DNA of 64,000 nt from a virus. The translations under genes were made by a program, and so were the position numbers. Positions within the stretch are counted from its first letter, which is position 1, and each line of letters opens with the position of its first letter. The notes below the pieces were generated by a model. That model was not told the origin of the DNA. It searched no databases and was given only the letters and a program-made list of their open reading frames with translations. Positions 20,627-56,146 of this stretch are shown piece by piece. The DNA is taken from the IMG/VR virus record IMGVR_UViG_3300045988_080648, one strand, 5' to 3'.

Positions 20627-21613
20627 ATGACAACAGTTTTAGGTGATAAACTCAATCAAGCTTTAGAAGCTAAGAATAATGATGTAGAAACATTTCTCTG
20701 GAAAGGTTCCAGAGAAATTGTAAATGGTGAACGCGTTCAGTCTTCCATAAAAATGGTAGATATGACTGAAGAAGAATTACGTAAGGCATATAAACATTGT
20801 GAATCAATGCTTTATAGTGATAACTATGAAAATCCTGGACGACGAGTTTTATTAGAACAGATTGAAGACCAAAGAACTCGCTGTAACGCTGAGTTGTTCT
20901 TAATTTGGTTATTATACCCAGGTGAAGGTAGTACTAGACAAGGTATTGTAAGAACTAGTTTCTTTAATATGCTTAATCAGCAGATTACTTCTCAGGCAGA
21001 ACAGTTTGCTAAAGATAATGCAGAAAGAGGTGAAGGAGAGACAAATGCTAGTGCTATTGCAGAGACTCTCTTTAAAGAATGGACTCTTAATGATATTATG
21101 AATAGTGATGAAGATTCATTTACTATGTTTGCTTCATTGCCATTATATATCGTTAGAGAAGCTTGTTTGTCTGCTTTAGGTAAATGTATTCGTAAACATA
21201 TTACTCTTACATTCATTACTGAGCTTGGATTGTGGTTTACACGTTCTGAATTATTGGAATTAAACAAGAAAAACGAGAATGGTCGTTTAGTAAATAGAAT
21301 TAAGCAAGTTGCTGAACTTCTAAATATTAAATTGAGAGACCCTAAGAATCCTGAAGACAAGAAAGGTCTTGTTTTAAAAATTGATGATAGAAAAGGCTTA
21401 ACTCTAAAAGAGTTTAGCGCAATGCTTACCTTCCGTAAGGATAAATATGATAAGCGTTATAATGATCTGACTAAAGTACAATTGGAAACCTTAAGAGATA
21501 AAGTTTTACTTCATCTTGAAAATAAGGTTAGATGGCAAGCTTCAGAGTGGGAGAAGCGTATTAAACAAATTAAAGCAGTAGCTGCTTACAATGGCTACAA
21601 GCTCTCTGATTGA
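20627..21613 (+). CDS. hypothetical protein (328 aa)
   Basis: ORF track. Confidence 0.5.
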   Translation: MTTVLGDKLNQALEAKNNDVETFLWKGSREIVNGERVQSSIKMVDMTEEELRKAYKHCESMLYSDNYENPGRRVLLEQIEDQRTRCNAELFLIWLLYPGEGSTRQGIVRTSFFNMLNQQITSQAEQFAKDNAERGEGETNASAIAETLFKEWTLNDIMNSDEDSFTMFASLPLYIVREACLSALGKCIRKHITLTFITELGLWFTRSELLELNKKNENGRLVNRIKQVAELLNIKLRDPKNPEDKKGLVLKIDDRKGLTLKEFSAMLTFRKDKYDKRYNDLTKVQLETLRDKVLLHLENKVRWQASEWEKRIKQIKAVAAYNGYKLSD

Positions 21614-21722
21614 AGGAGAATTATTTCATAAAATCACTAGAGATGAACGACAAGAAGAGTGTCGTAGAAAATGGATAAAAAATCGTTGTGTTGGGACAAT
21701 AGTCGCGTCCACTGGCTTTGGT
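21591..21722 (+). CDS. SF2 (DEAH-type) helicase, exon 1. It ends inside Walker A: ...VASTGFG then the intron.
   Basis: The translation ends ...NRCVGTIVASTGFG and then runs into non-protein-like sequence. Motif I resumes in exon 2. Confidence 0.55.
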
Positions 21723-22036
21723 ACTGTAAAAGCGGGTAATATATCTGTTAATTACAATGCCGTTCTGTTCAGGAATGGGCAGAATTATCATCGAGCAAAA
21801 TCGGTGAAAGCCCTATAGAGGGTAATACCGAGGTAATAGAAGAAATTAAAGAATCTTCTACACCGTACAGCATAGAGAATGAAACTAATAAATAGTTGAA
21901 CTAGATTATTTTCATTAGAATATAAATTCTCCACGAGTGTTCGATACCCCAACTGAAATAAGTGGGTAAAAATTTATGCGGGGCTTATTAGTAATAGTAA
22001 GAAGTATAGATAAAAAGCTATACGATAACAAGACCG
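21723..22036 (+). mobile_element. ORF-less group I-type intron (about 314 nt) interrupting the helicase Walker A codon boundary G|K. The 5' exon ends in T and the intron ends in G (omega-G) at 22036.
   Basis: Splicing in silico joins ASTGFG to KSRIGLNCIKTVLKHFPQYRVLIIVPTETLQKQW, giving GFGKS plus motif Ia. The 3' part of the intron shares blocks CACGAGTG(T/C)(T/C)CGA(T/C)AC and ATAGATAAAAAGCT(A/G)TA(C/T)GATAACAA with the introns at 45780-45909 and 48510-48625. Confidence 0.55.
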
Positions 22037-23194
22037 AAATCCAGAATAGGACTAAATTGTATTAAAACAGTGCTAAAACACTTTCCACAATATCGAGTAC
22101 TAATAATTGTGCCAACAGAAACTTTACAAAAACAATGGTGTGGTTATATAGATTCTAATGGACTAGGATTAAATTGTGATGTACAAATAATAAACACTGT
22201 AATAAAACATCCTGCCAAATATGATCTTTTAGTACTGGATGAAGCGCATAGATATGCAGCTGAGACTTTTGTAAGATTATTTGAAGTAGTAAAATACCAA
22301 TTTATCTTAGGTCTTACAGCTACTTTTGAGCGTCTTGATGGAAGAGATAAAATATTAGCAAAATACTGTCCAGTAATTGATACTATTGATATTAATACTT
22401 GTCTTGAAAATGGTTGGGTTAGCCCATATAAAGAATATCTAGTCTTAGTAAATGTTGATGATTTAGAAGAATATGAAAAAATAAATAAAGAATTCATTTC
22501 TCATTTTGAATTCTTCGGATTCTCTTGGGAGTTAGTTAATAAATTAGCTGGTCCTATGGGTTGGCGAAATAAATTGCTCCTAAGAGATTCTATGTGTAGT
22601 GACCCTGACAAGAAATCTGAAGTACTACAAAATATAAATTATCATGCTATCAGATTTTGGGCTACTATGCATGAGAAAAAAGCTTTTATTAATAATCATC
22701 CAAAGAAAATTGAAATAGTAAAGAAAATTATAGAAGCTAGAAAGGATAAAAAAATAATAACTTTTGCTAATAATATTAAAATGGCAGAAAAAATTCCTAA
22801 TGCTACTGTATATTCTAGTAGAACTTCTAAGAAAAGAAGTGCTACAGCTATTGAAGATTTTAACTCTGGAAAGATAACTTTATTATCTACAGTAAAAAAA
22901 GCTGATGAAGGACTTGATGTAAAAGGTCTTTCTGTAGCTATTATATTTGGATTAGATAGTTCAATTACTAGAGCTTGTCAACGGAGAGGAAGATCAATCC
23001 GATTTGAAAAAGGTAAGACAGCAGAGATATTCAATATAGTATTAAATAGGACTCAAGAAACTAAGTGGTTTTATGATTCTCATAAAGGAGATTCTTTTAT
23101 AACTATAGACGAATCAGAATTGGATAAAGTATTACAAGGTAAAGACTTTACTCCAGGTGAAAAGATAGTTCCTAAATTTGATTTTAGATTCTGA
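22037..23194 (+). CDS. SF2 helicase, exon 2. Motifs Ia IIVPTETL, II VLDEAHRY, III GLTATFER and VI QRRGRSIR.
   Basis: ORF track 22070-23194 extended 5' to the in-frame splice acceptor at 22037. Confidence 0.65.
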   Translation, partial: KSRIGLNCIKTVLKHFPQYRVLIIVPTETLQKQWCGYIDSNGLGLNCDVQIINTVIKHPAKYDLLVLDEAHRYAAETFVRLFEVVKYQFILGLTATFERLDGRDKILAKYCPVIDTIDINTCLENGWVSPYKEYLVLVNVDDLEEYEKINKEFISHFEFFGFSWELVNKLAGPMGWRNKLLLRDSMCSDPDKKSEVLQNINYHAIRFWATMHEKKAFINNHPKKIEIVKKIIEARKDKKIITFANNIKMAEKIPNATVYSSRTSKKRSATAIEDFNSGKITLLSTVKKADEGLDVKGLSVAIIFGLDSSITRACQRRGRSIRFEKGKTAEIFNIVLNRTQETKWFYDSHKGDSFITIDESELDKVLQGKDFTPGEKIVPKFDFRF

Positions 23195-23272: not shown

Positions 23273-23884
23273 ATGTTTGATTTAAACATTGATGAAGAAA
23301 TAACAATTTTAGAAAAATATAATATTACTCCTACTGAATTGTTTGTTGTTAAAGCTATAAATGCTTATATAGAAGATTATTCAGAAGATTATCTTCGTAG
23401 ATATTTAGCTATTGATAAAAAGTATGTAGGAAGTTTTATAGATGTACTCAAATCTTTACAAGATAAAGGTCTTATCCTTAAAAGTTATAAAATTATTCCA
23501 GGAATGAAACTAGTTCCTGAAGAAATACCATTTAATAAAAACTTCTTAAAATGTTTAGCTAAGAGTTCTTTTGAAATGGGAAAAGAACTTAGAGAACATT
23601 ATCCTAGATTTAGAAATATTAATGGATGCTTAACTAGTATGCTAGGTGTTTCTAAAAAGTTTAATAGTCTTGAAGATGCTTATAGAACTTATGGAAAGAA
23701 AATTCATTGGAATGAAGAACTTCATAAAAAGATTATTGATTTACTAGATTGGGAAGCTAATACTGATAATGGTATTATTAATTATAGCTTAGCTACATTT
23801 ATTGTAGATGAAAAATGGGAAGATCTTGAAGCTTTAAAAAATGGAGATTCAGGTATGAATTATAATTCAATCACCACTCTGTGA
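23273..23884 (+). CDS. hypothetical protein (203 aa)
   Basis: ORF track. Confidence 0.5.
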   Translation: MFDLNIDEEITILEKYNITPTELFVVKAINAYIEDYSEDYLRRYLAIDKKYVGSFIDVLKSLQDKGLILKSYKIIPGMKLVPEEIPFNKNFLKCLAKSSFEMGKELREHYPRFRNINGCLTSMLGVSKKFNSLEDAYRTYGKKIHWNEELHKKIIDLLDWEANTDNGIINYSLATFIVDEKWEDLEALKNGDSGMNYNSITTL

Positions 23885-24963
23885 GTTTAGAAAGTTTTAA
23901 ACGTTCGGTAGAGCTTGGTAGACAAGGATTTAATCAAGGATTTAGTATGGGTCTTCCTAAATTGGAAGAATTAATAGGAGGTATTACTAAAAGTACCATG
24001 ACTCTCTTATTTGCGAGTTCAGGACAAGGTAAAAGTTCATGCGTATTATATTCTTATATATATGCTCCTTTAAAAGAGCATTTAGAAGATAATAAATTAA
24101 AAATTATTTTCTTTGCTCTTGAGATGAAAGAAGACTTTATTATAGCTAAATTATTAAGTACTTATTTATATGATATCTATCATATTGTTGTAACTGCTAA
24201 ACAAATATTATCTATAGGTAAAGATTATATTTTACCTGACGATTTATATAAGTATGTACAACTAGGATATGATTGGCTAGAAAAAGTATATAAAGTACTA
24301 ACTATATACGAAGGCTCTTTTAATTCTGATAGGCTCATAAAAGTTACAATGGAAGAGCTTAAAAAAGAAGGAGAATTTATAGAGAATAAATATATTCCGA
24401 AAGACCCTGAAAAAGTAATACTTTCAGTAACTGACCATGTTGGATTGATTCAGCCATCTAATGGAAGGAATAGAAAAGGAGAAATTGATGATTATACTAA
24501 TAAATTAGTTATTATTAGAAATAAAACAGGATTATCTCCAATTATTGTTATGCAATCCAATAGAGCAGTGGCTAACATGGAAAGAAAAAAGAATGAAGCT
24601 TTCATGGAGCCAATGGTTGAGGATATTAAGGAAACGTCCACTGTTTCAGAGAATTCTGAGATTATTTTAGCTGTATATAATCCTCAAGTTGATAAAAGAA
24701 CAACTTATAGAGGTTATCAAGTTAAAGAAATGGGTTATAGATTTCGAAGTATTCTTGTACTAAAGTCAAGATATGGAGAAAATCAAGTAGCTGATTGCTG
24801 TTTCTTTGACGGAGCAGTAAATAAGTGGATGGAAATGCCTAAGCCAGAAGAAATCTTTGATTATTCTAGATATCGAGCTACAAATAACAGTTCAACAGAT
24901 AATATAATAAAGAATGAAGATAAAGATGGAAAAGTGAAAAATAAATTAGACTATAGTTTATGA
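23881..24963 (+). CDS. DnaB-like replicative helicase, RecA-like C-terminal domain (Walker A ASSGQGKSS, H1a IFFALEM)
   Basis: ORF track. Motif spacing typical of DnaB-family C-terminal domains. Confidence 0.6.
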   Translation: MSLESFKRSVELGRQGFNQGFSMGLPKLEELIGGITKSTMTLLFASSGQGKSSCVLYSYIYAPLKEHLEDNKLKIIFFALEMKEDFIIAKLLSTYLYDIYHIVVTAKQILSIGKDYILPDDLYKYVQLGYDWLEKVYKVLTIYEGSFNSDRLIKVTMEELKKEGEFIENKYIPKDPEKVILSVTDHVGLIQPSNGRNRKGEIDDYTNKLVIIRNKTGLSPIIVMQSNRAVANMERKKNEAFMEPMVEDIKETSTVSENSEIILAVYNPQVDKRTTYRGYQVKEMGYRFRSILVLKSRYGENQVADCCFFDGAVNKWMEMPKPEEIFDYSRYRATNNSSTDNIIKNEDKDGKVKNKLDYSL

Positions 24964-35675: not shown

Positions 35676-37445
35676 ATGTTATTTATGGTAATAAAGAGAG
35701 ACGGAAGTAAAGAAGAATTTAACAGAAACAAAATTAGAGATGCTGTACTAAAGGCTTTTGGAGTTACTCAAAACTCTAGTAAGACAATGGATGAAGATAT
35801 TTACAGAGCAGTTACTGAGATAACTAATTCTGTAGTAGAGACTGAAGATCAATCTATTGAGGATATTCAAGATCAAATTGAAGAACTCTTAATGGATTTA
35901 GGATATTATAGCGTGGCTAAAAAATATATTCTATATCGTAAAGAACGTGAAGATATTAGAAATCATGCTACTAGGGATATTGAATTTATTCATAATTTTG
36001 TAAAATCTGATAATACTGCTAATGCTACTATTGATGATAATAGTAATGTAGGAACTAAAGGTATTGGAGTATTAAACGCTGAAATACATAAAGTCGATAA
36101 TAAACTTACTAATACAGAATGGTGGGAAAGTTTTGTAAAGAAGAGAGATCCTAACTTTAATATAAAAGTTATGAGGAATGACTTTAAAACTATTTTGTAT
36201 CCTCATGACTCATCTTCTCAAGTAGGAGAACCATATTGTATGGCAGCTTCTATGTATCCTTTCTTATTGTCTGGATTAGAGAAATTAGGAGGTAAATCAG
36301 CCGTCCCAAAGAACCTTGATTCATTCTGTGGTATTTATGTAAATCTAAATTTTGCATTAGCCTCTGAAATTAAAGGAGCAGTAGCTACTCCTGAGTTTCT
36401 GATGTATATGGATTATTTCTGTAGAAAAGAATGGGGAAATAATTATTATCTCAAACCAAGTGTAAAAATAACTACAGACTATTGTATAAAACAGAAAACT
36501 ATTGGTAGTCAAATTGATCAGTATTTCCAACAGGTAACCTATTCCATTAATCAAATAGCGGGATCTAGAGGAATGCAGTCTCCATTTACAAATTTTTCAT
36601 TCTTCGATAAATATTTCTTTGAAGGTATGTTTGGAGAATTTGTATTTCCAGACGGGACAAAGCCAGAGTGGAATTCTACTAATTGGTTACAAAAGCGTTA
36701 TTTACATTGGTTAAATCAAGAAAGATTAAAATGTATCTTAACATTTCCTGTATGTAGCTATGCTTGCTTAACAGATGAGGAAGGTAATTTTAAAGATTTA
36801 GATACTTTCAATTTTATATGCAGTGAATATGCTCAAGGAAATTCTTTCTTTACTTATCTATCTCGTAGTGTAGATAGCTTAAGTTCATGTTGCCGTTTAC
36901 AAAATGCAGTACAAGAAAATACATTTAATACTACTAATGGTCAAATAGGTGTAATGACTGGTAGTAAGAATGTAATCACTCTTAATTTAAATAGAATTAT
37001 TCAGGATTGGCAGCATACTTGGTCTGATTATAAAGACCATATTGATGTTAACACCAATAAGTGTTGTTTCCCAGTAGATTGGATTACACATAAAGACTTC
37101 CAAGAAGGAATTAAGAAATATCTAGAAAATATTCTTGAAAGAGTTTATTTGTATCAGTATGCTTATAACGACTTAATGCATTGGTGCAAAGACCATCATT
37201 TATATGCTGCTTATGATGCTGGTTTTATTAATCTTGATAAACAGTATTTAACTATTGGAATTAATGGCTTAAATCAAGCTGCTGAATACTTAGGAATGGA
37301 ATGTAATAATAATATTTATTATAAGACATTCTGTAGATTGATATTCAGCACTATAAAAGAACAGAATAAGAAACATAAAACTAAAACAGCTCAATTTAAT
37401 ACTGAACAAGTGCCTAGACGTGTGGGCACTATAAATCTCTTTTAA
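35676..37445 (+). CDS. nrdD: anaerobic ribonucleoside-triphosphate reductase NrdD, exon 1. It has an ATP-cone at the N-terminus (VIKRDGSKEEFNRNKIRDAVLKAFG). The 3' boundary is uncertain because the ORF reads into intron 1 until the TAA at 37443-37445.
   Basis: ORF track. ATP-cone signature. The continuation with a Zn-ribbon is in exons 2 and 3. Confidence 0.7.
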   Translation: MLFMVIKRDGSKEEFNRNKIRDAVLKAFGVTQNSSKTMDEDIYRAVTEITNSVVETEDQSIEDIQDQIEELLMDLGYYSVAKKYILYRKEREDIRNHATRDIEFIHNFVKSDNTANATIDDNSNVGTKGIGVLNAEIHKVDNKLTNTEWWESFVKKRDPNFNIKVMRNDFKTILYPHDSSSQVGEPYCMAASMYPFLLSGLEKLGGKSAVPKNLDSFCGIYVNLNFALASEIKGAVATPEFLMYMDYFCRKEWGNNYYLKPSVKITTDYCIKQKTIGSQIDQYFQQVTYSINQIAGSRGMQSPFTNFSFFDKYFFEGMFGEFVFPDGTKPEWNSTNWLQKRYLHWLNQERLKCILTFPVCSYACLTDEEGNFKDLDTFNFICSEYAQGNSFFTYLSRSVDSLSSCCRLQNAVQENTFNTTNGQIGVMTGSKNVITLNLNRIIQDWQHTWSDYKDHIDVNTNKCCFPVDWITHKDFQEGIKKYLENILERVYLYQYAYNDLMHWCKDHHLYAAYDAGFINLDKQYLTIGINGLNQAAEYLGMECNNNIYYKTFCRLIFSTIKEQNKKHKTKTAQFNTEQVPRRVGTINLF

Positions 37446-43792: not shown

Positions 43793-44186
43793 AACATGGT
43801 GGAAGGTTAGGAAATGGTTTAAAATTCCTAAACCTTCCATTTATTTTGGACACATAATATCAGGGCTACCTTGTAGACTTCCTAATAAATGGATTAAGTT
43901 ATATAGTTATGACGTTACTTGGAAAGATAAATATGATAGTCCTAGATTTGAATTTGTTCCTCAAATAAATTTAGAATTATTTAAGATATATCAGTTATTA
44001 TTAACTTTTCAAACTAATAATAATGATATATATTGGGAGACAATCTTAGATATAATTTATTATAATAAATCTCTTAAAGAAGCTATAAATAAAAATACTT
44101 GGGAGAATTATAATAAAGAAAAAATAAACGCTTTTACTAAGGGATTTCTTACTCCTAAAGGAGAAAGATTATATTTATATGAGTAA
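43770..44186 (+). CDS. hypothetical protein (138 aa)
   Basis: ORF track. Confidence 0.45.
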   Translation: MLMENPLRTWWKVRKWFKIPKPSIYFGHIISGLPCRLPNKWIKLYSYDVTWKDKYDSPRFEFVPQINLELFKIYQLLLTFQTNNNDIYWETILDIIYYNKSLKEAINKNTWENYNKEKINAFTKGFLTPKGERLYLYE

Positions 44187-44418
44187 TGAATTAAATTATA
44201 TAGATAATTTCGATGGGTCTCCAGAAAGACCTAATATGATAGATAATCCTTTTGTAAAAGGAAATAATTGGTTAAGATTTATTGAAGAAGAGAAACAGAT
44301 AACATTAGGAGAGGAGCAATTACAAGTATTGCATGATATAGTTGATATTATATTAAATAATTTCAAACAAAAGGACTTTTTAAATCCTATAAATTTAGGA
44401 GGAGCTGCTGGTTGTGGT
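44179..44418 (+). CDS. Dda/RecD-like SF1 helicase, exon 1. It ends inside Walker A: ...INLGGAAGCG then the intron.
   Basis: ORF track 44179-44424. Walker A is completed by exon 2 (GCG|KS). Confidence 0.55.
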
Positions 44419-45909
44419 AATTAATAAAAATACTCTATTATAAAATATCTTTTAAAAAATTTTGATTTATAGGTGGGCATATATAATAGCTATACATAAA
44501 ATGTATAGTAAAATGAGTAAAATTACAGTACCTGAATCAGATTTAATTCTTATAAAAAAATATTATGAGGAAGATAATAAAAAAGTATCAGAGATAGTAA
44601 GATTATTAAATAATAAATATTCTTCCGGAGTAATTATTACTAGATTAAAAAATCTAGGAATATATCAAAGTACTAGAGGTAAAATACCAGATAATATTGG
44701 TAATAATATTATAGCAGAATATAATAAGGGCAATAGTATAGTAAGTTTGTCTAAACAATTTGGATATTCTACTACTAAAATATCTACATATTTAAAAAAT
44801 AATGATATTATTGTTATAAATAGACAAAATATTATAAATTATGATTTGGATAAAGATATTATACCCTTATATAATCAAGGATATAGCCTTACTAAATTAG
44901 CCGAGATATTTCATACTAATAGAAATAATTTAGCTAAAAAATTAAAAGCTAGAGGAATTGAAATAATCAATCATCAAAATGAAACTAAATTTAATGAACA
45001 TATCTTCGATGTTATAGATACAGAAGATAAGGCTTATTGGTTAGGTTTTATATTTGCTGATGGTTATATTGACAGTAGTCCTTTAGAAAAAAATAAAAAA
45101 TCTAGATACGGTTTTGAAATATCTTTAAAAGGTTCTGATGCTGAGCATCTACATAAATTTAATGAATTTATGGGTCATAATAAAGATAATGTAAAAATTG
45201 GTTATGTAAATTGTAATGGTAAACGTTGTGTTAGATGTAGATGGTATGTAGCGAATAAACACTTATGGAATACCTTAAATAGTCTAGGATGTACTCCTAG
45301 AAAAAGTTTAACACTAAAATTTCCAGAAAAAAGAATTTTTCAAGATATTTCTCTTATAAGACATTTTATTAGAGGATACTTTGATGGTGATGGATGTTTA
45401 AGTTATTGTAAAAGTATTAAAACTTTTTCTCCAATTTGTACATTTTTAGGTACTAAAGAATTTTTATAGGTACTATGTAGTTATTGTGAATTACTAACAG
45501 ATAGAACTATAAATCATAAAAGTAATGAAAATGTATATGAGGTATCTTGTACTCACAATATAGCCAGTAAATTATTACATTATTTATATGATGATGCAAA
45601 TATTTATTTACAAAGAAAATATAATAGAGCAATATTTTTATGGAATGGTTGCCGGTCACTTGAGAAATTAAGTGAATTTTTACAAACCAATATCGGTGAA
45701 GGCTGTGATGCTAATACCGAGATAACTACAGAAACTAAAGAGTCTGTAGCATCGTAGAGCGTAGAACTTGAACCTGAGAAATCAGAATAAAATAGTTCCA
45801 AGAGTGGTTTGCCCTCAGCACATAAAGGTGGAGGTGAATATGTACGCCGAGCTATAGCAAATAAGAAACTATAGAAATACAGATAAAAAGCTGTATGATA
45901 ACAAAACTG
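44419..45909 (+). mobile_element. group I-type intron (about 1.49 kb) in the Dda-like helicase, carrying a LAGLIDADG homing endonuclease gene. The 5' exon ends in T and the intron ends in G (45909).
   Basis: Splicing joins LGGAAGCG to KSLCTSFLLEWINTKGFPVKLCAPTHKAA (Walker A plus motif Ia). The 3' intron blocks are shared with the introns at 21921-22036 and 48510-48625. Confidence 0.6.
44462..45469 (+). CDS. intron-encoded LAGLIDADG homing endonuclease (two LAGLIDADG motifs: LGFIFADGYI and GYFDGDGCL). It ends at an in-frame TAG, and the same frame stays open to 45757 with homologous C-terminal sequence. It may therefore be decaying or need read-through.
   Basis: ORF track. The post-TAG continuation VLCSYCELLTDRTINHKSNENVYEVSCTHNIASKLLHYLYDDANIYLQRKYNRAIF... 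aligns with the C-terminus of the LAGLIDADG protein at 56423. Confidence 0.6.
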   Translation: MIYRWAYIIAIHKMYSKMSKITVPESDLILIKKYYEEDNKKVSEIVRLLNNKYSSGVIITRLKNLGIYQSTRGKIPDNIGNNIIAEYNKGNSIVSLSKQFGYSTTKISTYLKNNDIIVINRQNIINYDLDKDIIPLYNQGYSLTKLAEIFHTNRNNLAKKLKARGIEIINHQNETKFNEHIFDVIDTEDKAYWLGFIFADGYIDSSPLEKNKKSRYGFEISLKGSDAEHLHKFNEFMGHNKDNVKIGYVNCNGKRCVRCRWYVANKHLWNTLNSLGCTPRKSLTLKFPEKRIFQDISLIRHFIRGYFDGDGCLSYCKSIKTFSPICTFLGTKEFL

Positions 45910-47139
45910 AAGTCGCTTTGCACTAGCTTCCTTTTAGAGTGGATAAATACCAAAGGCTTCCCAGTTAAGTTATGTGCTCCTACTCATAAAGCAGCTTTAG
46001 TACTTAAAAAGTATAATAATTACGATGCAACTACTCTTCATAGTATGTTAGCATTATCTCCTAAAGTAGATATTCTTAAACTGGATATCAGAGAATTAAG
46101 ATTCTTTGCTACTAATGATAAAAAAATGTCTATACCATATGATGGAATTGTCATTTGTGATGAAGCATCTATGGTAAGTAGTGATTTATATGATTTATTA
46201 GTAGAAAAATGTAGCTTAATGGGTACTATGATTATCTTTTGTGATGATTATGCTCAGTTAAACCCAGTGAAAGAAGATGAACAATCAAAAGTCTTTAGAT
46301 GTAAACATCAATTTAGATTGACTAAAATATACAGACAATCTGAAAAAAGTGGTCTTAAAGGCATTTTACAGACGCTTAGAGAGTCTCCAATACAACAGTG
46401 GGATAACTGTGAAGGTGAGGATGGAAGTCTCTTTGTAGAGTCTAAATTAGAAAATTTTTGTAGAAAAGCAGTTTCGGAATTTAAATACGAGATAGAAGCT
46501 AAGGATATATTACATACTAAAATTCTAGCTTATACTAATGCTCGTGTAAATAACTATAATAAAGCTATTCATAAACTTTTATGGAATGATAATAATTTTC
46601 TTCATAAAGGAGAAATTTTAATGGCTTATGAGAATTTCAAAAAAGATGGTTATGAAATAACTAATTCTATGGATTATATAGTAGAGGAATTTACTCCTAC
46701 TATTATTGATGTTCCATATTATACTAAGTGTAAAGGATACTTAGTTAAACTATATGATGAATATAATAACATATCTTTTGAAATTCCACTATTAGCTCCA
46801 GAAGAATGTAATGAAGATTTAGCTATAGTTATAGAAACTATAAGAACTGAAGCAATAAATTCTCAAGGATACGATAGAAAAAAGAAGTGGGGAATATATT
46901 ATGCTTTAATGGGAAGTTTTTGTACATCTAAAGATCTATTTACTGATGGTAGATGTATAAGAAAAGCTACTTTTAAATACGGATATGCTATTACTACTCA
47001 TCGTTCTCAAGGGTCTTCTTATGATAATGTATTTATAGATATGAAAGATATCTTTAGAGCTAAAGATAAAGAGACTCTTAGGCAATTACAATATGTAAGT
47101 ATGTCTAGAACTAGAAGCGATATAACTATGCTATTATGA
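45910..47139 (+). CDS. Dda/RecD-like SF1 helicase, exon 2 (motif Ia LCAPTHKAA, Walker B IVICDEASMV, C-terminal motif TTHRSQGSSYDNVFID)
   Basis: ORF track 45895-47139, trimmed to the splice acceptor. Confidence 0.65.
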   Translation, partial: KSLCTSFLLEWINTKGFPVKLCAPTHKAALVLKKYNNYDATTLHSMLALSPKVDILKLDIRELRFFATNDKKMSIPYDGIVICDEASMVSSDLYDLLVEKCSLMGTMIIFCDDYAQLNPVKEDEQSKVFRCKHQFRLTKIYRQSEKSGLKGILQTLRESPIQQWDNCEGEDGSLFVESKLENFCRKAVSEFKYEIEAKDILHTKILAYTNARVNNYNKAIHKLLWNDNNFLHKGEILMAYENFKKDGYEITNSMDYIVEEFTPTIIDVPYYTKCKGYLVKLYDEYNNISFEIPLLAPEECNEDLAIVIETIRTEAINSQGYDRKKKWGIYYALMGSFCTSKDLFTDGRCIRKATFKYGYAITTHRSQGSSYDNVFIDMKDIFRAKDKETLRQLQYVSMSRTRSDITMLL

Positions 47140-47405
47140 TTGATGTATTATTGATTCATAATAATCCAGCATTAGTAGAATTGTTTAAAAACTCCTATAA
47201 TGGAGAAGCTTTTTTACAATTCTTAGATAGAGGTTCTAAAGTAGAACGTAGTAAAGCTTATAAGATACAGCAAGAATGGGGTAGTAGTCAAACCCCATTT
47301 GCACTAGTGAAAAAAGATGATAAGGTTATTAAAGCCTTTTATGCAGAAGATAAAAACAATGTAATTTCTAAATTAATATCTTATTTAAATGAGCACAATT
47401 ATTAA
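47136..47405 (+). CDS. hypothetical protein (89 aa)
   Basis: ORF track. Confidence 0.45.
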
Positions 47406-47691
47406 TGTTCCAGTAATTAACAATTCTAAAAATCCACTTCCTAAGTATGAAACAACTGAAGCTGCTGGTATGGATTTACGAGCTAGTTTAACTAATCTTT
47501 CCCCTAAATTTTTATTTAATGCTTATATAGAAAGTGGTAAAGTAATCATTGAGCCTAGAGGTAGAGCATTAATTCCTACAGATTTACATATGTCTATCCC
47601 AGAAGGTTATGAACTACAGATTAGACCAAGAAGTGGACTGGCATTAAAATATGGTATTACAGTATTGAATACTCCTGGAACTATTGACGCT
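47389..47691 (+). CDS. dut: dUTPase, exon 1 (ends ...LNTPGTIDA inside motif III)
   Basis: ORF track 47389-47706. dUTPase motifs AAGMDLRA and [10 protein letters not shown]. Confidence 0.65.
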
Positions 47692-48625
47692 GAAAAATAT
47701 TTTTAAAATTCCTTGGGACAATCGATAAAATAGCTATATTATAAAATATAATTATCAGATAATTTTATTAATTAATAATTATAATATAGTTATGAGTGAA
47801 TGTAAATATTGTAAAAAAGAATTTATTCCAAATGAGTCTGCTAGACAATTTCCTAAAACATTTTGTTCTTATTCTTGTTATGAACATTGGTTGAAAGAAA
47901 ATAAAGAACCAAATTGTGTATGTGCTTATTGTAAAATTCCTATGTATAGAAAGCCTTCCCAAATTAAAAGAGCTGTGCATGGAGTAACTTGCTCTAAAGA
48001 GTGTGCTAATAAATTAAAAGCTATTTATTATTCTGGAAAAGGTAATCCTCAATATGGATTAATAGGAGATAAAAATGCTTCATTTAAAGGTATAGAAATA
48101 CTAAGTAATTATGGGTATATTCTTGAGTATGCCCCAAATCATCCTTTTCCTCATAATAAAAGCGTAAAGGGTACTAGAGTGCTTCAACATAGATTAATAA
48201 TAGAGCGAAATGCTGATAAATTTGATGATAAGTATTTCATAATCATAAATAATAAGAAATATTTAAAATTAGAATATGAAGTACATCATAAAAACGAAAT
48301 TAAAACAGATAATCGCTTAGAAAATTTACAAATAGTAACAGCTAATGAACATAGGAAAATTCATAATAATACTAAGAAAATTATAAGAGATGAAAAAGGT
48401 CAAATAATCGGCGTCAAAAAATCGGACAAAATCGGGGAAGGCTGTGATGCTAATCCCGAGCTAACTAATTAAATTACGAAAGGTTAATTAGTAGTGTAAC
48501 GCATAGTAGTTGAATAAATATAATACTACCACGAGTGCCCGACACTTATGTGAAAAGATATGCTGAACTATAGCAAATAAGAAGCTATAGAACTATAGGA
48601 TAAAAAGCCTATAGGGTAACAAATG
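47692..48625 (+). mobile_element. group I-type intron in dut (about 930 nt) carrying an HNH endonuclease gene. The 5' exon ends in T and the intron ends in G.
   Basis: Splicing restores motif III as [15 protein letters not shown]. Confidence 0.6.
47792..48472 (+). CDS. intron-encoded HNH endonuclease (Cys-rich Zn-binding N-terminus; HNH motif EVHHKNEIKTDNRLENLQIVTANEHRKIH)
   Basis: ORF track. HNH motif. Confidence 0.65.
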   Translation: MSECKYCKKEFIPNESARQFPKTFCSYSCYEHWLKENKEPNCVCAYCKIPMYRKPSQIKRAVHGVTCSKECANKLKAIYYSGKGNPQYGLIGDKNASFKGIEILSNYGYILEYAPNHPFPHNKSVKGTRVLQHRLIIERNADKFDDKYFIIINNKKYLKLEYEVHHKNEIKTDNRLENLQIVTANEHRKIHNNTKKIIRDEKGQIIGVKKSDKIGEGCDANPELTN

Positions 48626-48811
48626 GATTATACAGGAAATATAGGAATTATTCTCATAAATCATGGAGAAAAACCGTTTATGGTAGAAAATGGAGACAGA
48701 ATTGCACAAGGAGTATTTGCTAAAATAGTTAATGCTGAATTTCAGTCAGTAGATTCTTTAGAAAAAACTGAAAGAGGTGATGGAGGTTTTGGACATACTG
48801 ATGTAAAATGA
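48626..48811 (+). CDS. dut: dUTPase, exon 2 ([28 protein letters not shown]...)
   Basis: ORF track 48623-48811 minus the ATG that belongs to the intron 3' end. Confidence 0.6.
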
Positions 48812-49263: not shown

Positions 49264-50497
49264 CTTATTTGAAAAAGAATTTCAAACAAATGCTTATTTA
49301 GTATCTAAAGATGCTAAAGGTAAAGTTAGATGTGTAAGACTATGGTATGAGTGGAGTGATTCCGCTCATGCCTATCTTATTAAAAGACAGTCTTGGCAAT
49401 TAAATGGTAAAAGACTGGACCATCCAGATATTCCTATAAAGAAAGGATTAGTCAGTAGAACTCTTAGGGAACAAACTCAACTTCAGTTTAACTCTAAACT
49501 TAAAGAATATAAGGATAAAGGTTATAAAGAAGTTGAAGAAGATCCTGATAATAAAGATGAGAAAATAATTTTAAACTTTCTTCCTGAGTATAATACTGAT
49601 TCTTATAACCATATTAAACCTATGTTGGCTAAACAGGAGAAAAAAGTTATTAAACGAGAAATATTTGATAATGAATGGTTAGCTAGTAGGAAAATTAATG
49701 GATTAAGATGTTGTTTTTATTGGGATGGTAAACATATTAAAACTTACTCAAGAGGTGGGGAAAATTATGATTTATCTACCCAACATTTAACTAAACATCC
49801 AATTTTAATAGAAATTTTTAAAAAATTTCCAACATTAGTATTAGATTCAGAATTATATAAACACGGAAAATCTTTGCAACAAATATCTGGAGCAGCTAGA
49901 TTAGAAAGAAATGCAGTGGATTGTGATTGGTTAGAAATTTATTGTTATGATTGTTTCTTTACTAATAAAATGGGAGTTCCTGCAAAACAACGTGAATTAT
50001 TTCTTATAAAGCTATTTAAAAGTTATAACATATATGGATTTAATCCTATTAGAGAATGGCAACAAGGAGAACTTCAAATACAATTAGTACCCCAAGTAAA
50101 AGTATCAGGTTGGGAAAACATTGAAAAATTACATAATAAATATGTTTCTGAAGGATTTGAGGGTGTTGTATTAAGAGATCCTGATAAGCCTTATAAGCCA
50201 AACTCTAGGGGTAATCAAATGATAAAAGTAAAACATTACTTAGATGCTACTTATAAAGTTATCGACTATGAATTAGGGTTACGAGGTTCAGAGGATATGA
50301 CTTTTATTTTACAAATGCCTAATGGTCAAACTTTTAAAGCAAGTCCAATGGGAGATAGAGCTACAAAAGCTGATTATGTCGAAAATTTTGACAAAAAATA
50401 TAAAAATCATTTAGGGGATTGTAAATATTTTGAAATATCCGATAGTGGAATTCCTTGTCAACCAAAATTCACAGTATTTCGGTTTGATTTAGAGTAA
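49256..50497 (+). CDS. ATP-dependent polynucleotide ligase (nucleotidyltransferase motifs I KINGLR, III LDSELY, IV FEGVVLRD, V MIKVK). Unusually, motif I has Asn in place of the Asp of the KxDGxR consensus.
   Basis: ORF track. Ligase/capping-enzyme superfamily motifs in the canonical order. Confidence 0.6.
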   Translation: MSDLFEKEFQTNAYLVSKDAKGKVRCVRLWYEWSDSAHAYLIKRQSWQLNGKRLDHPDIPIKKGLVSRTLREQTQLQFNSKLKEYKDKGYKEVEEDPDNKDEKIILNFLPEYNTDSYNHIKPMLAKQEKKVIKREIFDNEWLASRKINGLRCCFYWDGKHIKTYSRGGENYDLSTQHLTKHPILIEIFKKFPTLVLDSELYKHGKSLQQISGAARLERNAVDCDWLEIYCYDCFFTNKMGVPAKQRELFLIKLFKSYNIYGFNPIREWQQGELQIQLVPQVKVSGWENIEKLHNKYVSEGFEGVVLRDPDKPYKPNSRGNQMIKVKHYLDATYKVIDYELGLRGSEDMTFILQMPNGQTFKASPMGDRATKADYVENFDKKYKNHLGDCKYFEISDSGIPCQPKFTVFRFDLE

Positions 50498-50586
50498 TAC
50501 TAAAATTTTACTAAAAATATCTAGACTAATTATTTTTAATAGACTATATTGATACTATTAATTAAAATGTTAAAATATTTTTAGTA

Positions 50587-51795
50587 ATGACAAAAAAGGA
50601 AAAATTTATTACTCAATCAATTGAAAAATTTGGTGACAAATTTGATTATTCTAAAGTAACAGATATTAATAATAAAGAAATAGATAAAATTACAATTATA
50701 TGTCCTATACATGGTGAATTTGAGACTACTCCTAAATCATTTTTAATATCTAAATATGGTTGTAAAAAATGTGCTAACCAACAAAAAGGAAAACATTATC
50801 GAACAGATAAAAATAATTTAAGTTCTGTTGATACACATATCCCACATATAGAAAATCCTATTATATCAAAATCTTTAGTTGTGGGTACTGTATACTGTTT
50901 TATTAATAGTATTAATGGTAAAAAATATATTGGAGAAACAGTAAAGAAAGATTATACTGTTAGATTTAATGAACATAGAAGTAAAAGTGAAAGAGGAGTA
51001 GTAACTTATTTCTATAATGCTATCCGAAAATATGGATGGGATGCTTTTAATAAATATATCATATATCAAACTGAACCATATGAAGATACTGAGGAGAATA
51101 GAAAAAAATTAAATGATATTGTAAATAAAAAAGAAATTGAGTTTATTAATAAATACAATACTACAAATCCTAATTTTGGCTATAATTTAACAAAAGGAGG
51201 AGACGGAGTTTTAGGTTACCATTTTTCTAAAGAAACCAAAGAAAAAATGAGTAAATCTCATCAAGGAGAAAAACATTGGAATTATGGTAAAAGAAATGAA
51301 GGTAAATCTAGAGCAATTTTACAATTTGATTTAGATGGAAATTATATAGCAGAGTTCCCATCTATGGCAGAAATTACACGACAATTAGGATATAAAGCTA
51401 ATAATGTATGCAGATGTTGTGATAATTTAATAGGTTCTTATATGGGATATATTTGGGTACGAAAAGATGATTATTATGAAGGCTATATTCAAAAATACAA
51501 ATCAAGAGTAAAATGTAAATCTAATGATAAGGAAGTTTTACAATATACTTTTTTAGGAGATTATGTAGCTTCCTATATAAGCTGTGCAGAAGCAAAAAGA
51601 ACTTTAAAAATGGGATATAGCCCTTCAGGAGCTGCCTCTGGAACTGATTTTTCAGCAGGAGGTTATATATGGATATATAAAAAAGATTTTACAGAAGATT
51701 TATTAAAAGAAAAATTAGAGCTTGTAAAAAGTAGTCGTAATTATAAAAAAATTGTGAGTAATCTTAGACAGGCAGCTTTAATTAATCGTAATTAA
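50587..51795 (+). CDS. free-standing GIY-YIG homing endonuclease (GIY-YIG core VYCFINSINGKKYIGET ... YFYNAIRKYG; NUMOD3-like repeats KEKMSKSHQGEKHW)
   Basis: ORF track. GIY-YIG and NUMOD motifs. Confidence 0.65.
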   Translation: MTKKEKFITQSIEKFGDKFDYSKVTDINNKEIDKITIICPIHGEFETTPKSFLISKYGCKKCANQQKGKHYRTDKNNLSSVDTHIPHIENPIISKSLVVGTVYCFINSINGKKYIGETVKKDYTVRFNEHRSKSERGVVTYFYNAIRKYGWDAFNKYIIYQTEPYEDTEENRKKLNDIVNKKEIEFINKYNTTNPNFGYNLTKGGDGVLGYHFSKETKEKMSKSHQGEKHWNYGKRNEGKSRAILQFDLDGNYIAEFPSMAEITRQLGYKANNVCRCCDNLIGSYMGYIWVRKDDYYEGYIQKYKSRVKCKSNDKEVLQYTFLGDYVASYISCAEAKRTLKMGYSPSGAASGTDFSAGGYIWIYKKDFTEDLLKEKLELVKSSRNYKKIVSNLRQAALINRN

Positions 51796-54604: not shown

Positions 54605-55825
54605 ATGATTTATTTAGTTACCAAGGTTAAAGCTTTATTCAAATCTTCTAAATATGAATGTATTTCTGTAGAAAAAAGTAAAGAAATTATTAATTCTATG
54701 AAAAAAATTAGAGGATTAGATACTGAGACTATGGGATTAAATCCTCATACTAAAGCATTATTAACAGTTCAGATAGGTACTAAAGAAAATCAAGTAGTAA
54801 TTGATTGCACTACTATAAATATTTGGGAATATAAAGATATATTAGAAGATTCCAATATTTTATATATCTTAGCTAATGCTAAATTTGATATCCAATTCTT
54901 CTTTAAACATAACATTATATTATCTAAAGTATGGGATGTAATGTTAGCTGAAAAGATTAGATATTTAGGATATCCTAAAGGTAGTTTCCATGCTGACTTA
55001 AAGACCCTTGAATACAAATACCTTAATAAATATATGGATAAAACTGTTCGAGGTAAAATTACTAAAGTTGGTCTAACTGAAGAAGTAATAGTTTATGCAG
55101 CTAATGATGTAGTAGATTTGGAAGATTTAATGAATGCCCAAATAAAAGCTTTAGAAAAAGAAGAGTTGGTAAAGGCAGTACAATTAGAGAATAGATTTGT
55201 TATTCCATTAGCTTATATGGAATGGTGTGGAGTAAAATTAGACGTAAAAAAATGGAAAGCTAAAATGGTAAAAGATGCTAAACGTTTAAAGATTGCTCTA
55301 ACTAAATTAAATGATTGGGTAGTAAAACATTATGGAAAAGACTCTAGATTTACTAAAGTAGATTTACAAGGAGATTTATTTTTAGGATTTAATACTGACC
55401 CACAGTGTGCTATAAATTGGAATAGTGCAGCTCAAGTAATTCCATTATTCAAAGCTATTGGAATAAATACTTCTACTATAGATAGTAAAACAAGGAAATT
55501 AAAAGATTCTGTAGATGCTAAATTATTAGAGCCTCAGGCTAAGGATTTTGAAATTCTTCCTATTTATCTAGATTATAAAGAAGCTCAAAAAGTATGCTCT
55601 ACTTATGGACAAAACTGGCTAGACCAAATAAATCCTGAAACTGGTAGAATATATACTAAATTTAATCAGTTAGGCACTAATACTGCCAGAATATCTAGTG
55701 GTGGAAAAGATAAAAATGCTCAAATAGAATATGTAAATTTTCTTAATCTTCCAGCAGATCCAGAAACTAGAAGTTGTTTTATCGCAGAGAAAGGTAACTC
55801 TTGGATTTCCATAGACTACTCGGGT
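54605..55825 (+). CDS. polA: family-A DNA polymerase, exon 1 (3'-5' exonuclease motifs LDTETMGL, ANAKFDIQFF, YAANDV; polymerase motif TGRIYTKFNQLGTNTARISS; ends in motif A ...ISIDYSG)
   Basis: ORF track 54605-55834, trimmed to the inferred splice donor. Confidence 0.65.
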
Positions 55826-56146
55826 AAAAAATAAACATATAAACTATAACATTTTTATAGTATATTTTGAATAATCTATCCGTAAATAAATCAGAGGATG
55901 TGTTAAAAATGTTTTATAGTTTATATCATAATGCTCATTATTTTCTAAAAAGAAAATATGAAAAATTTGGCCCCCTTGTAAGGAAACTTACAGGTGAAAA
56001 CCTCGTAAATTCAGTTAATGAACGGGCATTATCAAAGACTGAGCCAAGCCTTATAATAAAGGAAGGTGCAGAGACTAGAAACGAGGAGCCTAAAATAAAT
56101 GATTAAATTTATCATGGCTGAGGTATAGTCCAGCGTGTTTACGTAG
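55826..56146 (+). mobile_element. group I-type intron 1 in polA (about 320 nt). It contains only a 79-aa ORF (55867-56106) with no recognisable endonuclease motif. The 5' exon ends in T and the intron ends in G (the G of TAG).
   Basis: Splicing joins DYSG to QESFIMASISNDKALIHELMEGSGDLHSLTA, which is motif A and its continuation. Confidence 0.5.

Follow-up and report, generated by a model that had tools for sequence, protein, structure and literature searches.

Group I introns whose endonuclease genes are intact, decayed or absent have been known in the replication and nucleotide-metabolism genes of phages since T4. The element described here is a 314-nucleotide (nt) insert in a superfamily 2 (SF2) helicase gene, located on a 64,000-nt stretch of DNA from an uncultured human-gut phage (IMG/VR virus record IMGVR_UViG_3300045988_080648; the whole stretch is referred to as the window, and positions are window positions unless another record is named). 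The insert, at 21723-22036, interrupts the gene at GGT^AAA (a caret marks a junction throughout), and with a probability of about 0.9 we regard it as a self-splicing group I intron, IA-like, with one extra helix between P7 and P3′. This reading is carried by an exact junction, intron-less alleles, a covarying fold, covariation between helix P1 and the guide sequence, and membership of an intron family, and from these we infer catalysis and splicing in vivo. The insert is an ordinary kind of phage element; less expected are a family that is invisible to Rfam, endonucleases of two families that read through the same core, and the repeated use of the Gly^Lys junction of Walker A.

The group IA introns of T4 (td, nrdB and nrdD/sunY) lie, like the SF2 intron, at conserved motifs of genes for nucleotide and DNA metabolism. 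Their endonuclease genes are intact (I-TevI), defective (I-TevIII in nrdB, per annotation) or absent, which is a comparable range, and the extra helix region that they have between P7 and P3′ has a predicted counterpart in the SF2 intron. The host gene differs, being here a helicase interrupted in its Walker A motif, and the T4 endonucleases belong to the GIY-YIG or HNH families, whereas the relative of the SF2 intron encodes a LAGLIDADG enzyme. Also unlike T4, the open reading frame (ORF) for that endonuclease is located in the P1 loop and reads through P2-P7. No sequence similarity between the T4 introns and the SF2 intron is detectable, and Rfam gives 40 bits for td and none for the SF2 intron.

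In Streptococcus thermophilus phages, ORF-containing, ORF-less and intron-less alleles of a lysin-gene group I intron coexist at one site. The gene and host are different there, and the ORF-less forms are deletion derivatives; in contrast, the 5′ loop of the ORF-less SF2 intron shares nothing with the ORF-containing form, and simple deletion is only a candidate origin. Inteins sit in the P-loops of DnaB, RecA, terminase and other ATPases and are, like the SF2 intron family, selfish elements with a homing endonuclease aimed at Walker A DNA. However, inteins are in frame and removed at the protein level, whereas the SF2 insert has stops in all frames, is predicted to be a structured RNA and would be removed at the RNA level.

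The closest systems in habitat are human-gut crAss-like phages (Delta, Zeta) and Jug phages, whose genomes, according to two surveys, each contain many group I introns in structural genes and genes of core replication functions (PMC7886860, PMC12880540). For Jug phages, metatranscriptome reads confirmed the splicing of 37 out of 76 introns (PMC7886860; PMC12880540), and the gene calls are fragmented in the same way as at the present locus. The introns in these surveys were located via endonuclease domains or published subtype models (PMC7886860; PMC12880540), and the main text of the surveys describes none at a helicase Walker A site. The window phage differs in that a tblastn search of the phage collection with its helicase returned only two related records, both unclassified 'Bacteriophage sp.'; matches to PHROGs were to generic replication functions.

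The split helicase gene and its alleles

An earlier note, made from the sequence alone, had proposed that an SF2 helicase gene is split exactly between the Gly and Lys of Walker A by a group I intron that lacks an ORF. The parts of the locus are:

21591-21722, plus strand: exon 1 of the SF2 helicase gene; 44 codons, starting at ATG 21591 and ending ...IVASTGFG, with GGT (21720-21722) as last codon
21723-22036, plus strand: the insert, a probable group I intron; 314 nt, first base A, terminal omega-G at 22036, no intact ORF
22037-23194, plus strand: exon 2 of the SF2 helicase gene; KSRIGL... to the stop, 385 codons plus stop

Exon 1 translates as MATSS...CVGTIVASTGFG up to the GGT at 21720-21722, and the frame entered at 22037 reads KSRIGLNCIKTVLKHFPQYRVLIIVPTETLQKQW... 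and remains open to 23194. All coordinates and sequences of the proposal, namely exon 1 ending ASTGFG, a 314-nt gap and resumption of the frame, were recovered. When 21722 was joined to 22037, giving the predicted spliced junction ...GGCTTTGGT^AAATCCAGA..., a 429-amino-acid (aa) protein was obtained that contains the Walker A motif TGFGKS and matches the ResIII, DEAD and Helicase_C domains. Moving the junction 1 nt rightward (A^...A^) leaves the messenger RNA (mRNA) identical but places A at both critical positions; a U at −1 together with a terminal G in the intron was claimed for the first junction only, and is found with that junction and not with the shifted one.

The mechanical ORF list does break the gene as the earlier note had described. 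It contains a spurious 75-aa ORF (21591-21818), in which exon 1 reads through into the intron for 31 further codons up to a TAG at 21816-21818, and a 374-aa ORF that begins at GTG 22070, 33 nt 3′ of the true exon 2 start; the latter starts 11 codons past the Walker A Lys and hence lacks it. Stop codons are present in all three forward frames of 21723-22036 and no intact endonuclease ORF was found inside the insert, so that it can be called ORF-less with one qualification: 21761-21895 correspond to the 45 codons that close the endonuclease ORF of a relative. An intein was ruled out, given the stops in every frame and a read-through from exon 1 that ends after 31 codons. Translational bypass of the T4 gene 60 type was likewise rejected, the gap being 314 nt versus about 50 nt and the codons failing to match (take-off GGT, codon preceding exon 2 CCG).

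Comparison with intron-less homologs, which the earlier note had suggested as a check, confirmed the junction well beyond coincidence. Searching a large protein collection identified many 429-aa homologs that are 86-98% identical over 100% of the joined product, with which exon 1 aligns residue for residue, together with more distant homologs (53-68% identical) of nearly equal length; all those found have a continuous TGFGK[ST]R. Clusters of 374-aa proteins, 95-98% identical, correspond to intron-containing alleles called from the GTG, while the most numerous clusters at this site are intron-less alleles. At the DNA level, exactly the 314 nt are absent from six intron-less loci from different samples, which read ...GGATTTGGT^ and then AAGAGC, AAGAGT, AAAACG or AAAAGT. 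In seven intron-containing loci the insert lies at the same base, all with GGT^...^AAATCC.

The exon sequence across the site is GGTAAATCC in intron-plus alleles and GGTAAGAGC, GGTAAAAGT or GGTAAAACG in intron-less alleles. The codons after the junction (window 22037-22042; loci L122-L135) are AAA TCC in 7/7 intron-plus and 0/6 intron-less alleles, the Ser codon 3′ of the junction tracking the presence of the intron. This tracking would fit co-conversion of the flanking exon during homing, intron-less variants that resist cleavage, or a combination of the two.

The insert occupies this base in no fewer than seven independent assemblies, which derive from different samples and include both ORF-less and endonuclease-carrying forms. 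The ORF-less form with the same 36-nt 5′ segment was found in four further independent metagenome assemblies (321-322 nt), and in alleles L124 and L130 P2 is swapped for a different sequence with pairing retained; the endonuclease-carrying form (1212 nt) was found in two assemblies. The coexistence of intron-less, endonuclease-carrying and ORF-less states fits the pattern expected from a homing cycle of invasion, endonuclease loss and intron loss.

MT835492.1 (human faeces; record flagged UNVERIFIED) is a 96%-identical relative with the same intron at the SF2 site. Its homology to the window breaks exactly after 21722 and returns at 21759, with 927 nt between these points in MT835492 versus 36 nt in the window, and its insert contains a 319-aa ORF with two LAGLIDADG motifs (LAGLIDADG_3, 33.5 bits) located in the P1 loop. 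Because this ORF reads through the ribozyme core, the window retains its tail:

21761-21895, plus strand: frame corresponding to the 45 C-terminal codons of the relative's LAGLIDADG ORF (RSVQEWAELSSSKIGESPIEGNTEV...NK, then stop); no start codon, overlaps the 3′ strand of P1 through P7.1

The stop of the endonuclease ORF in the relative falls at the window-equivalent TAG 21893-21895, in the inner hairpin of the P7.1-like helix. A reading of the window copy as a simple deletion of the endonuclease-carrying form was not upheld, its first 36 nt sharing nothing with the first 104 nt of the relative and the retained ORF tail being the ribozyme core itself. With no P1-loop sequence in common between the two forms, the ORF-less form may have come about by deletion, or an ORF-less intron may have acquired the endonuclease gene. 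The window copy could spread only via an endonuclease from a co-infecting relative.

Predicted fold and pairing with the 5′ exon

A conserved hairpin of the insert was used as retrieval pattern and yielded 120 viral contigs, about 40 of which contained clear homologs. Sixteen compact family members were aligned from the guide sequence to the 3′ end (alignment A3), on which RNAalifold predicted P2, a long-range P3, P4, P5, P6, a P7.1-like helix, P8, P9 and P9.1, with compensatory changes at 49 of 59 pairs. The P7 pseudoknot, five pairs (GCRUA/UAYGC) that cross P3, was added by hand. With P7 included, 95.8% of 1003 cells pair, versus 32-41% when the partners were slid by 1-3 columns, and 51/64 pairs changed on both sides. 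The covariation score was 0.697 compared to about 0.1 in controls, and 0 of 500 shuffles reached the observed values. The family profile matches 21723-22036 at E=1e-54, the minimum free energy (MFE) of the window insert has a z-score of −5.2 versus shuffles, and the single-sequence fold recovers P1-P8. The predicted core is in canonical order, with P3-P8 including the P3/P7 pseudoknot, the P4-P5-P6 domain and P9, and its helices are all intact in the window copy:

21719-21729, plus strand: 5′ strand of P1, made of exon UGGU (21719-21722) and intron ACUGUAA (21723-21729); the splice-site U is 21722
21752-21762, plus strand: 3′ strand of P1, UUACAAU plus the guide sequence GCCG (21759-21762); G21759 pairs with U21722, and P1 is present in the single-sequence MFE fold
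21764-21771 with 21776-21783, plus strand: P2 hairpin; 8/8 pairs in the window, all 8 compensatory in the family
21791-21797, plus strand: 5′ strand of P3 (UCGAGCA), followed by J3/4 AAA; long-range pairing with 21938-21944, 7/7 pairs in the window
21801-21806 with 21826-21831, plus strand: P4; invariant in A3, adjoined by A-rich J4/5 and J5/4
21810-21814 with 21819-21823, plus strand: P5, flanked by the A-rich J4/5 and J5/4
21832-21864, plus strand: P6, an extended hairpin; 10/11 pairs in the window, 10/11 compensatory in the family
21870-21874, plus strand: 5′ strand of P7 (GCAUA), pairing with UAUGC at 21975-21979; pseudoknot with P3, 100% of cells paired
21875-21931, plus strand: P7.1-like extra helix between P7 and P3′; GAGAAU 21875-21880 pairs with AUUCUC 21926-21931
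21885-21918, plus strand: optional hairpin inside the P7.1-like helix; many family members do without it
21938-21944, plus strand: 3′ strand of P3 (UGUUCGA), with a conserved CCAMGAGUG 5′ of it
21945-21968, plus strand: P8 hairpin; 5/5 pairs in the window, all 5 compensatory in the family
21969-21979, plus strand: J8/7 AAAAUU and the 3′ strand of P7, UAUGC (21975-21979); the GAAAAU-type joining segment is invariant in A3
21984-21989 with 21996-22001, plus strand: P9 hairpin
22004-22009 with 22018-22023, plus strand: P9.1 hairpin

Across the family, 100% of P3 cells are paired and 6/7 of its pairs are compensatory, and for P9 and P9.1 together the values are 100% and 13/14. P7 occurs as GCAUA/UAUGC, GCGUA/UACGC and GAGUA/UACUC. 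The invariance of P4 in A3 arises because the retrieval pattern fixed TCGGT/ACCGA; outside A3, double compensatory variants of P4 were found in a further intron of the window (TCGGG/CCCGA, intron 3 below) and in MT835492 (ACGGG/CCCGT).

A P1 with a U.G pair, the conserved core and a terminal G are defining sequence and structure features of group I introns, and subgroup IA is defined in general by extra helices (P7.1, P7.2 or P7.1a) between P7 and P3′ (PMC3984707). Between P7 and P3′ of the insert, one covarying helix with an optional inner hairpin was identified and no second helix; the modelled helix points to a putative IA-like intron.

To relate the guide sequence to the exon, ten family members with placeable junctions, representing nine insertion sites, were compared. 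The guide covaries with the 5′ exon across all nine sites, with U.G always at the splice site:

exon end GGU, guide GCC: five sites
exon end GGGGU, guide GCCCU: a ClpX-like gene
exon end GAU, guide GUC: a terminase
exon end UGUU, guide GACA: another terminase
exon end GACGCU, guide GGCGUC: the dUTPase intron of the window, six pairs

Splicing as predicted produces one open frame with sensible motif continuity in 9/10 members, and a terminal G was present in 10/10 of the introns examined. The group I assignment made in the earlier note is therefore upheld by the exact junction, the covarying core, the P1 with its U.G pair and the terminal G, and on these features splicing would be expected.

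In the proposed mechanism, the gene would be transcribed together with the intron, the guide GCCG (21759-21762) would pair with the exon end UGGU to form P1 with U.G at the splice site, and the core would fold into P3-P9. An external guanosine would attack after U21722, the freed exon 1 would attack after the terminal G22036, and the ligated mRNA would encode the 429-aa helicase with an intact GFGKS P-loop. Unspliced RNA could yield no more than the 75-aa peptide plus, at most, a protein truncated at its N-terminus and devoid of the P-loop. Formation of the P-loop would require splicing, as the Lys is missing from the 374-aa ORF, and the exons are as well conserved as those of intron-less alleles, which argues for expression of the gene.

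Related introns and the Walker A site

Searching the window with the family profile (nhmmer) identified two copies besides the SF2 intron:

44419-45909, plus strand: intron 2, 1491 nt, in a Dda/RecD-like superfamily 1 (SF1) helicase gene; exon 1 44179-44418, exon 2 45910-47139
47692-48625, plus strand: intron 3, 934 nt, in a dUTPase gene; exon 1 47389-47691, exon 2 48626-48811

The host gene of intron 2 encodes the SF1 helicase domains AAA_30 and UvrD_C_2, and the junction lies exactly between the Gly and Lys of Walker A (...GGAAGCG^KSLCTSF...), with the guide sequence GCCG at 45651-45654. Intron 2 carries a LAGLIDADG ORF with an in-frame TAG at 45467-45469 (...GTKEFL, stop, VLCSY...), past which the same frame is open through the ribozyme core to ...TETKESVAS and a stop. 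The interrupted ORF is either a decaying endonuclease gene or subject to stop-codon read-through; no suppressor tRNA was found among the four transfer RNA (tRNA) genes in the window. The junction of intron 3 in the dUTPase reads ...GTIDA^DYTGNIG..., and an ORF for an HNH endonuclease (47792-48472) lies within this intron. The guide of intron 3, GGCGUC (48410-48415), matches the exon end GACGCU perfectly over six pairs, P2 is absent, and P4 is the TCGGG/CCCGA variant.

In a whole-genome comparison, the 95%-identical MT835492 lacks the SF1 and dUTPase introns, so that the occupied sites differ. The window DnaB-like gene (23881-24963) is intron-less at the site 24030^24031, where Walker A of the DnaB-like helicase of MT835492 is split as GIG^KS by a 381-nt ORF-less intron (L001 5033-5413); the guide sequence of this intron is preceded by what is left of a LAGLIDADG C-terminus. 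This copy is 82% identical to the SF1 copy in the window, a degree of sequence similarity that suggests a move between two different Walker A sites. The DnaB-like intron and the intron at L116 likewise precede AAATCA.

In addition, two AAA ATPase genes of MT835492 contain half-length, 92%-identical family copies at Walker A:

window-equivalent site 6568^6569 (AAA ATPase 6302-7456); L136 4815-5973; MT835492 61663-62095: sites of the half-length copies

In the gene homologous to window 6302-7456 the MT835492 insert starts right after GGT, and in the second AAA ATPase the junction is ...GTGK^TSL. In both half-copies the ribozyme breaks off at one identical point, past the P7.1-like helix, leaving no P3′, P8, P7′ or P9, and the first half-copy is accompanied by the loss of 18-24 nt of exon 2. 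Dead elements are one possible reading of the two, and repeats collapsed in an UNVERIFIED assembly another.

Across the family, junctions exactly at Gly^Lys were found in the SF2, SF1 and DnaB-like helicases, in a classical AAA gene (L116, ^KSVDAK...), in an AAA_24 gene (L115, ...FGRPKAG^KSTL...) and in an unassigned gene (L110, ^KTSLIQ...). Those of a terminase ATPase (L036) and of L117 lie inside or beside terminase-type P-loops (G^IGKSHL, QGKTW). As a raw share, about one in four of the insertion sites seen falls in Walker A; as the retrieval pattern lay in the ribozyme, there was no selection for host genes. No description of this SF2 helicase intron, or of Walker A as a hot spot for group I introns, was found in the open-access literature.

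The endonuclease ORFs of the unrelated LAGLIDADG and HNH families translate P3-P6 in the same frame, which yields a shared peptide tail, ...KIGEGCDANTE(I/V)..., at window 21801-21831, 45682-45720 and 48422-48460, as seen with alignment A3. The intron core also has matches in the phage collection, which include cultured phages, in Clostridioides phages phiCD211 and phiCDIF1296T, several Staphylococcus and Streptococcus phages and a Bacillus phage, and partial matches in the crAss-like records cr118_1 and cr6_1. These are annotated as hypothetical protein, terminator, homing endonuclease or nothing, and none as an intron.

Elsewhere in the window, further hints of mobile elements come from 35676-37445, 49822-51795 and 54605-55834, where the family profile had no match: NrdD-like and DNA polymerase ORFs match their profiles only partly, and a 402-aa GIY-YIG/HNH-type endonuclease ORF is located at 50587-51795, in a stretch absent from MT835492. 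In the nrdD-like gene, at window ~36890, MT835492 is longer by about 1 kb.

Alternative readings and meaning

Several observations weigh against a group I intron that splices. The exon part of P1 has only 4 base pairs, two of them G.U, and P1 includes a C.A mismatch at intron position +2. A search for P10, in which the beginning of exon 2 would pair with the 5′ portion of the guide region, gave nothing convincing. Relative to sister alleles, the inner hairpin at 21885-21918 of the window copy has lost 7 nt. Finally, the Rfam group I model (Intron_gpI, RF00028), with which the earlier note had proposed to check the insert, matched none of the three window introns at the gathering score or at E≤10. 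At the gathering score, Rfam reported four tRNAs only for the whole window, and at E≤10 the three intron regions gave only chance-level matches to unrelated families.

The T4 td and nrdB introns are textbook self-splicing introns. As a control, phage T4 137955-145112 was searched in the same way, and the td intron scored 40.3 bits versus a gathering score of 50, while the nrdB intron was not reported by RF00028 at E≤1. With td below threshold and nrdB missed, the failure of RF00028 reflects a weak model and not the sequence. A match to RF00028 is similarity to one model, not a defining property of group I introns, and its absence does not count against the group I reading.

Of the other explanations, the one that survives best, although improbable, is that the intron has decayed and no longer splices, the helicase being a pseudogene in a phage that uses other helicases or is defective. 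Such decay would agree with the absent endonuclease gene, the 7-nt deletion in a peripheral hairpin and the short P1, and the two MT835492 copies that stop half-way through the ribozyme imply that dead copies may exist in the lineage. However, the core helices of the window copy are all intact, the deleted hairpin is missing from many family members anyway, no stop or frameshift disrupts the exons, whose protein is 98% identical to that of intron-less alleles, and the ORF-less form is present in four other assemblies, with compensatory replacement of P2.

Split genes made by endonuclease insertion occur in phages, and the ORF list does contain two ORFs, of 75 aa and 374 aa. It is nevertheless very improbable that the gene works in pieces, with products of 44-75 aa and 374 aa assembling non-covalently as in the endonuclease-split nrdA of phage Aeh1: the break is inside the P-loop, between the Gly and the catalytic Lys that the 374-aa ORF lacks, and the insert bears splice-site signatures and a conserved RNA structure. 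An assembly artefact or chimeric contig, in which repeated intron copies caused a false insertion, is hardly credible despite at least three related copies in the genome and the odd half-copies of the UNVERIFIED MT835492, since insertion at the same base recurs in at least seven independent assemblies, both ORF-less and endonuclease-carrying.

With a self-splicing group I intron as the preferred reading, the locus illustrates a problem of annotation, in which gene callers break an essential helicase into 75-aa and 374-aa ORFs, the second without a P-loop; at least two further genes of the window are misannotated in the same way. It is also a problem of detection, as Rfam finds 0/3 window introns, and a family profile would recover many broken gut-phage genes. 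The three allele states, together with exon codons that track the presence of the intron, provide a clear example of how the homing cycle runs in nature.

The family may be a 'P-loop hopper', whose guide GCC (pairing with GGU) and LAGLIDADG endonucleases would suit the DNA sequence GGT^AAR-WCN, which codes for the Gly-Lys step of Walker A; we put this forward tentatively, at slightly less than even odds. If so, the element would move among unrelated P-loop nucleoside triphosphatase genes, within and between phage genomes. Its recurrence at Gly^Lys of Walker A, in ATPase genes that are unrelated, suggests a route for one intron lineage into new genes.

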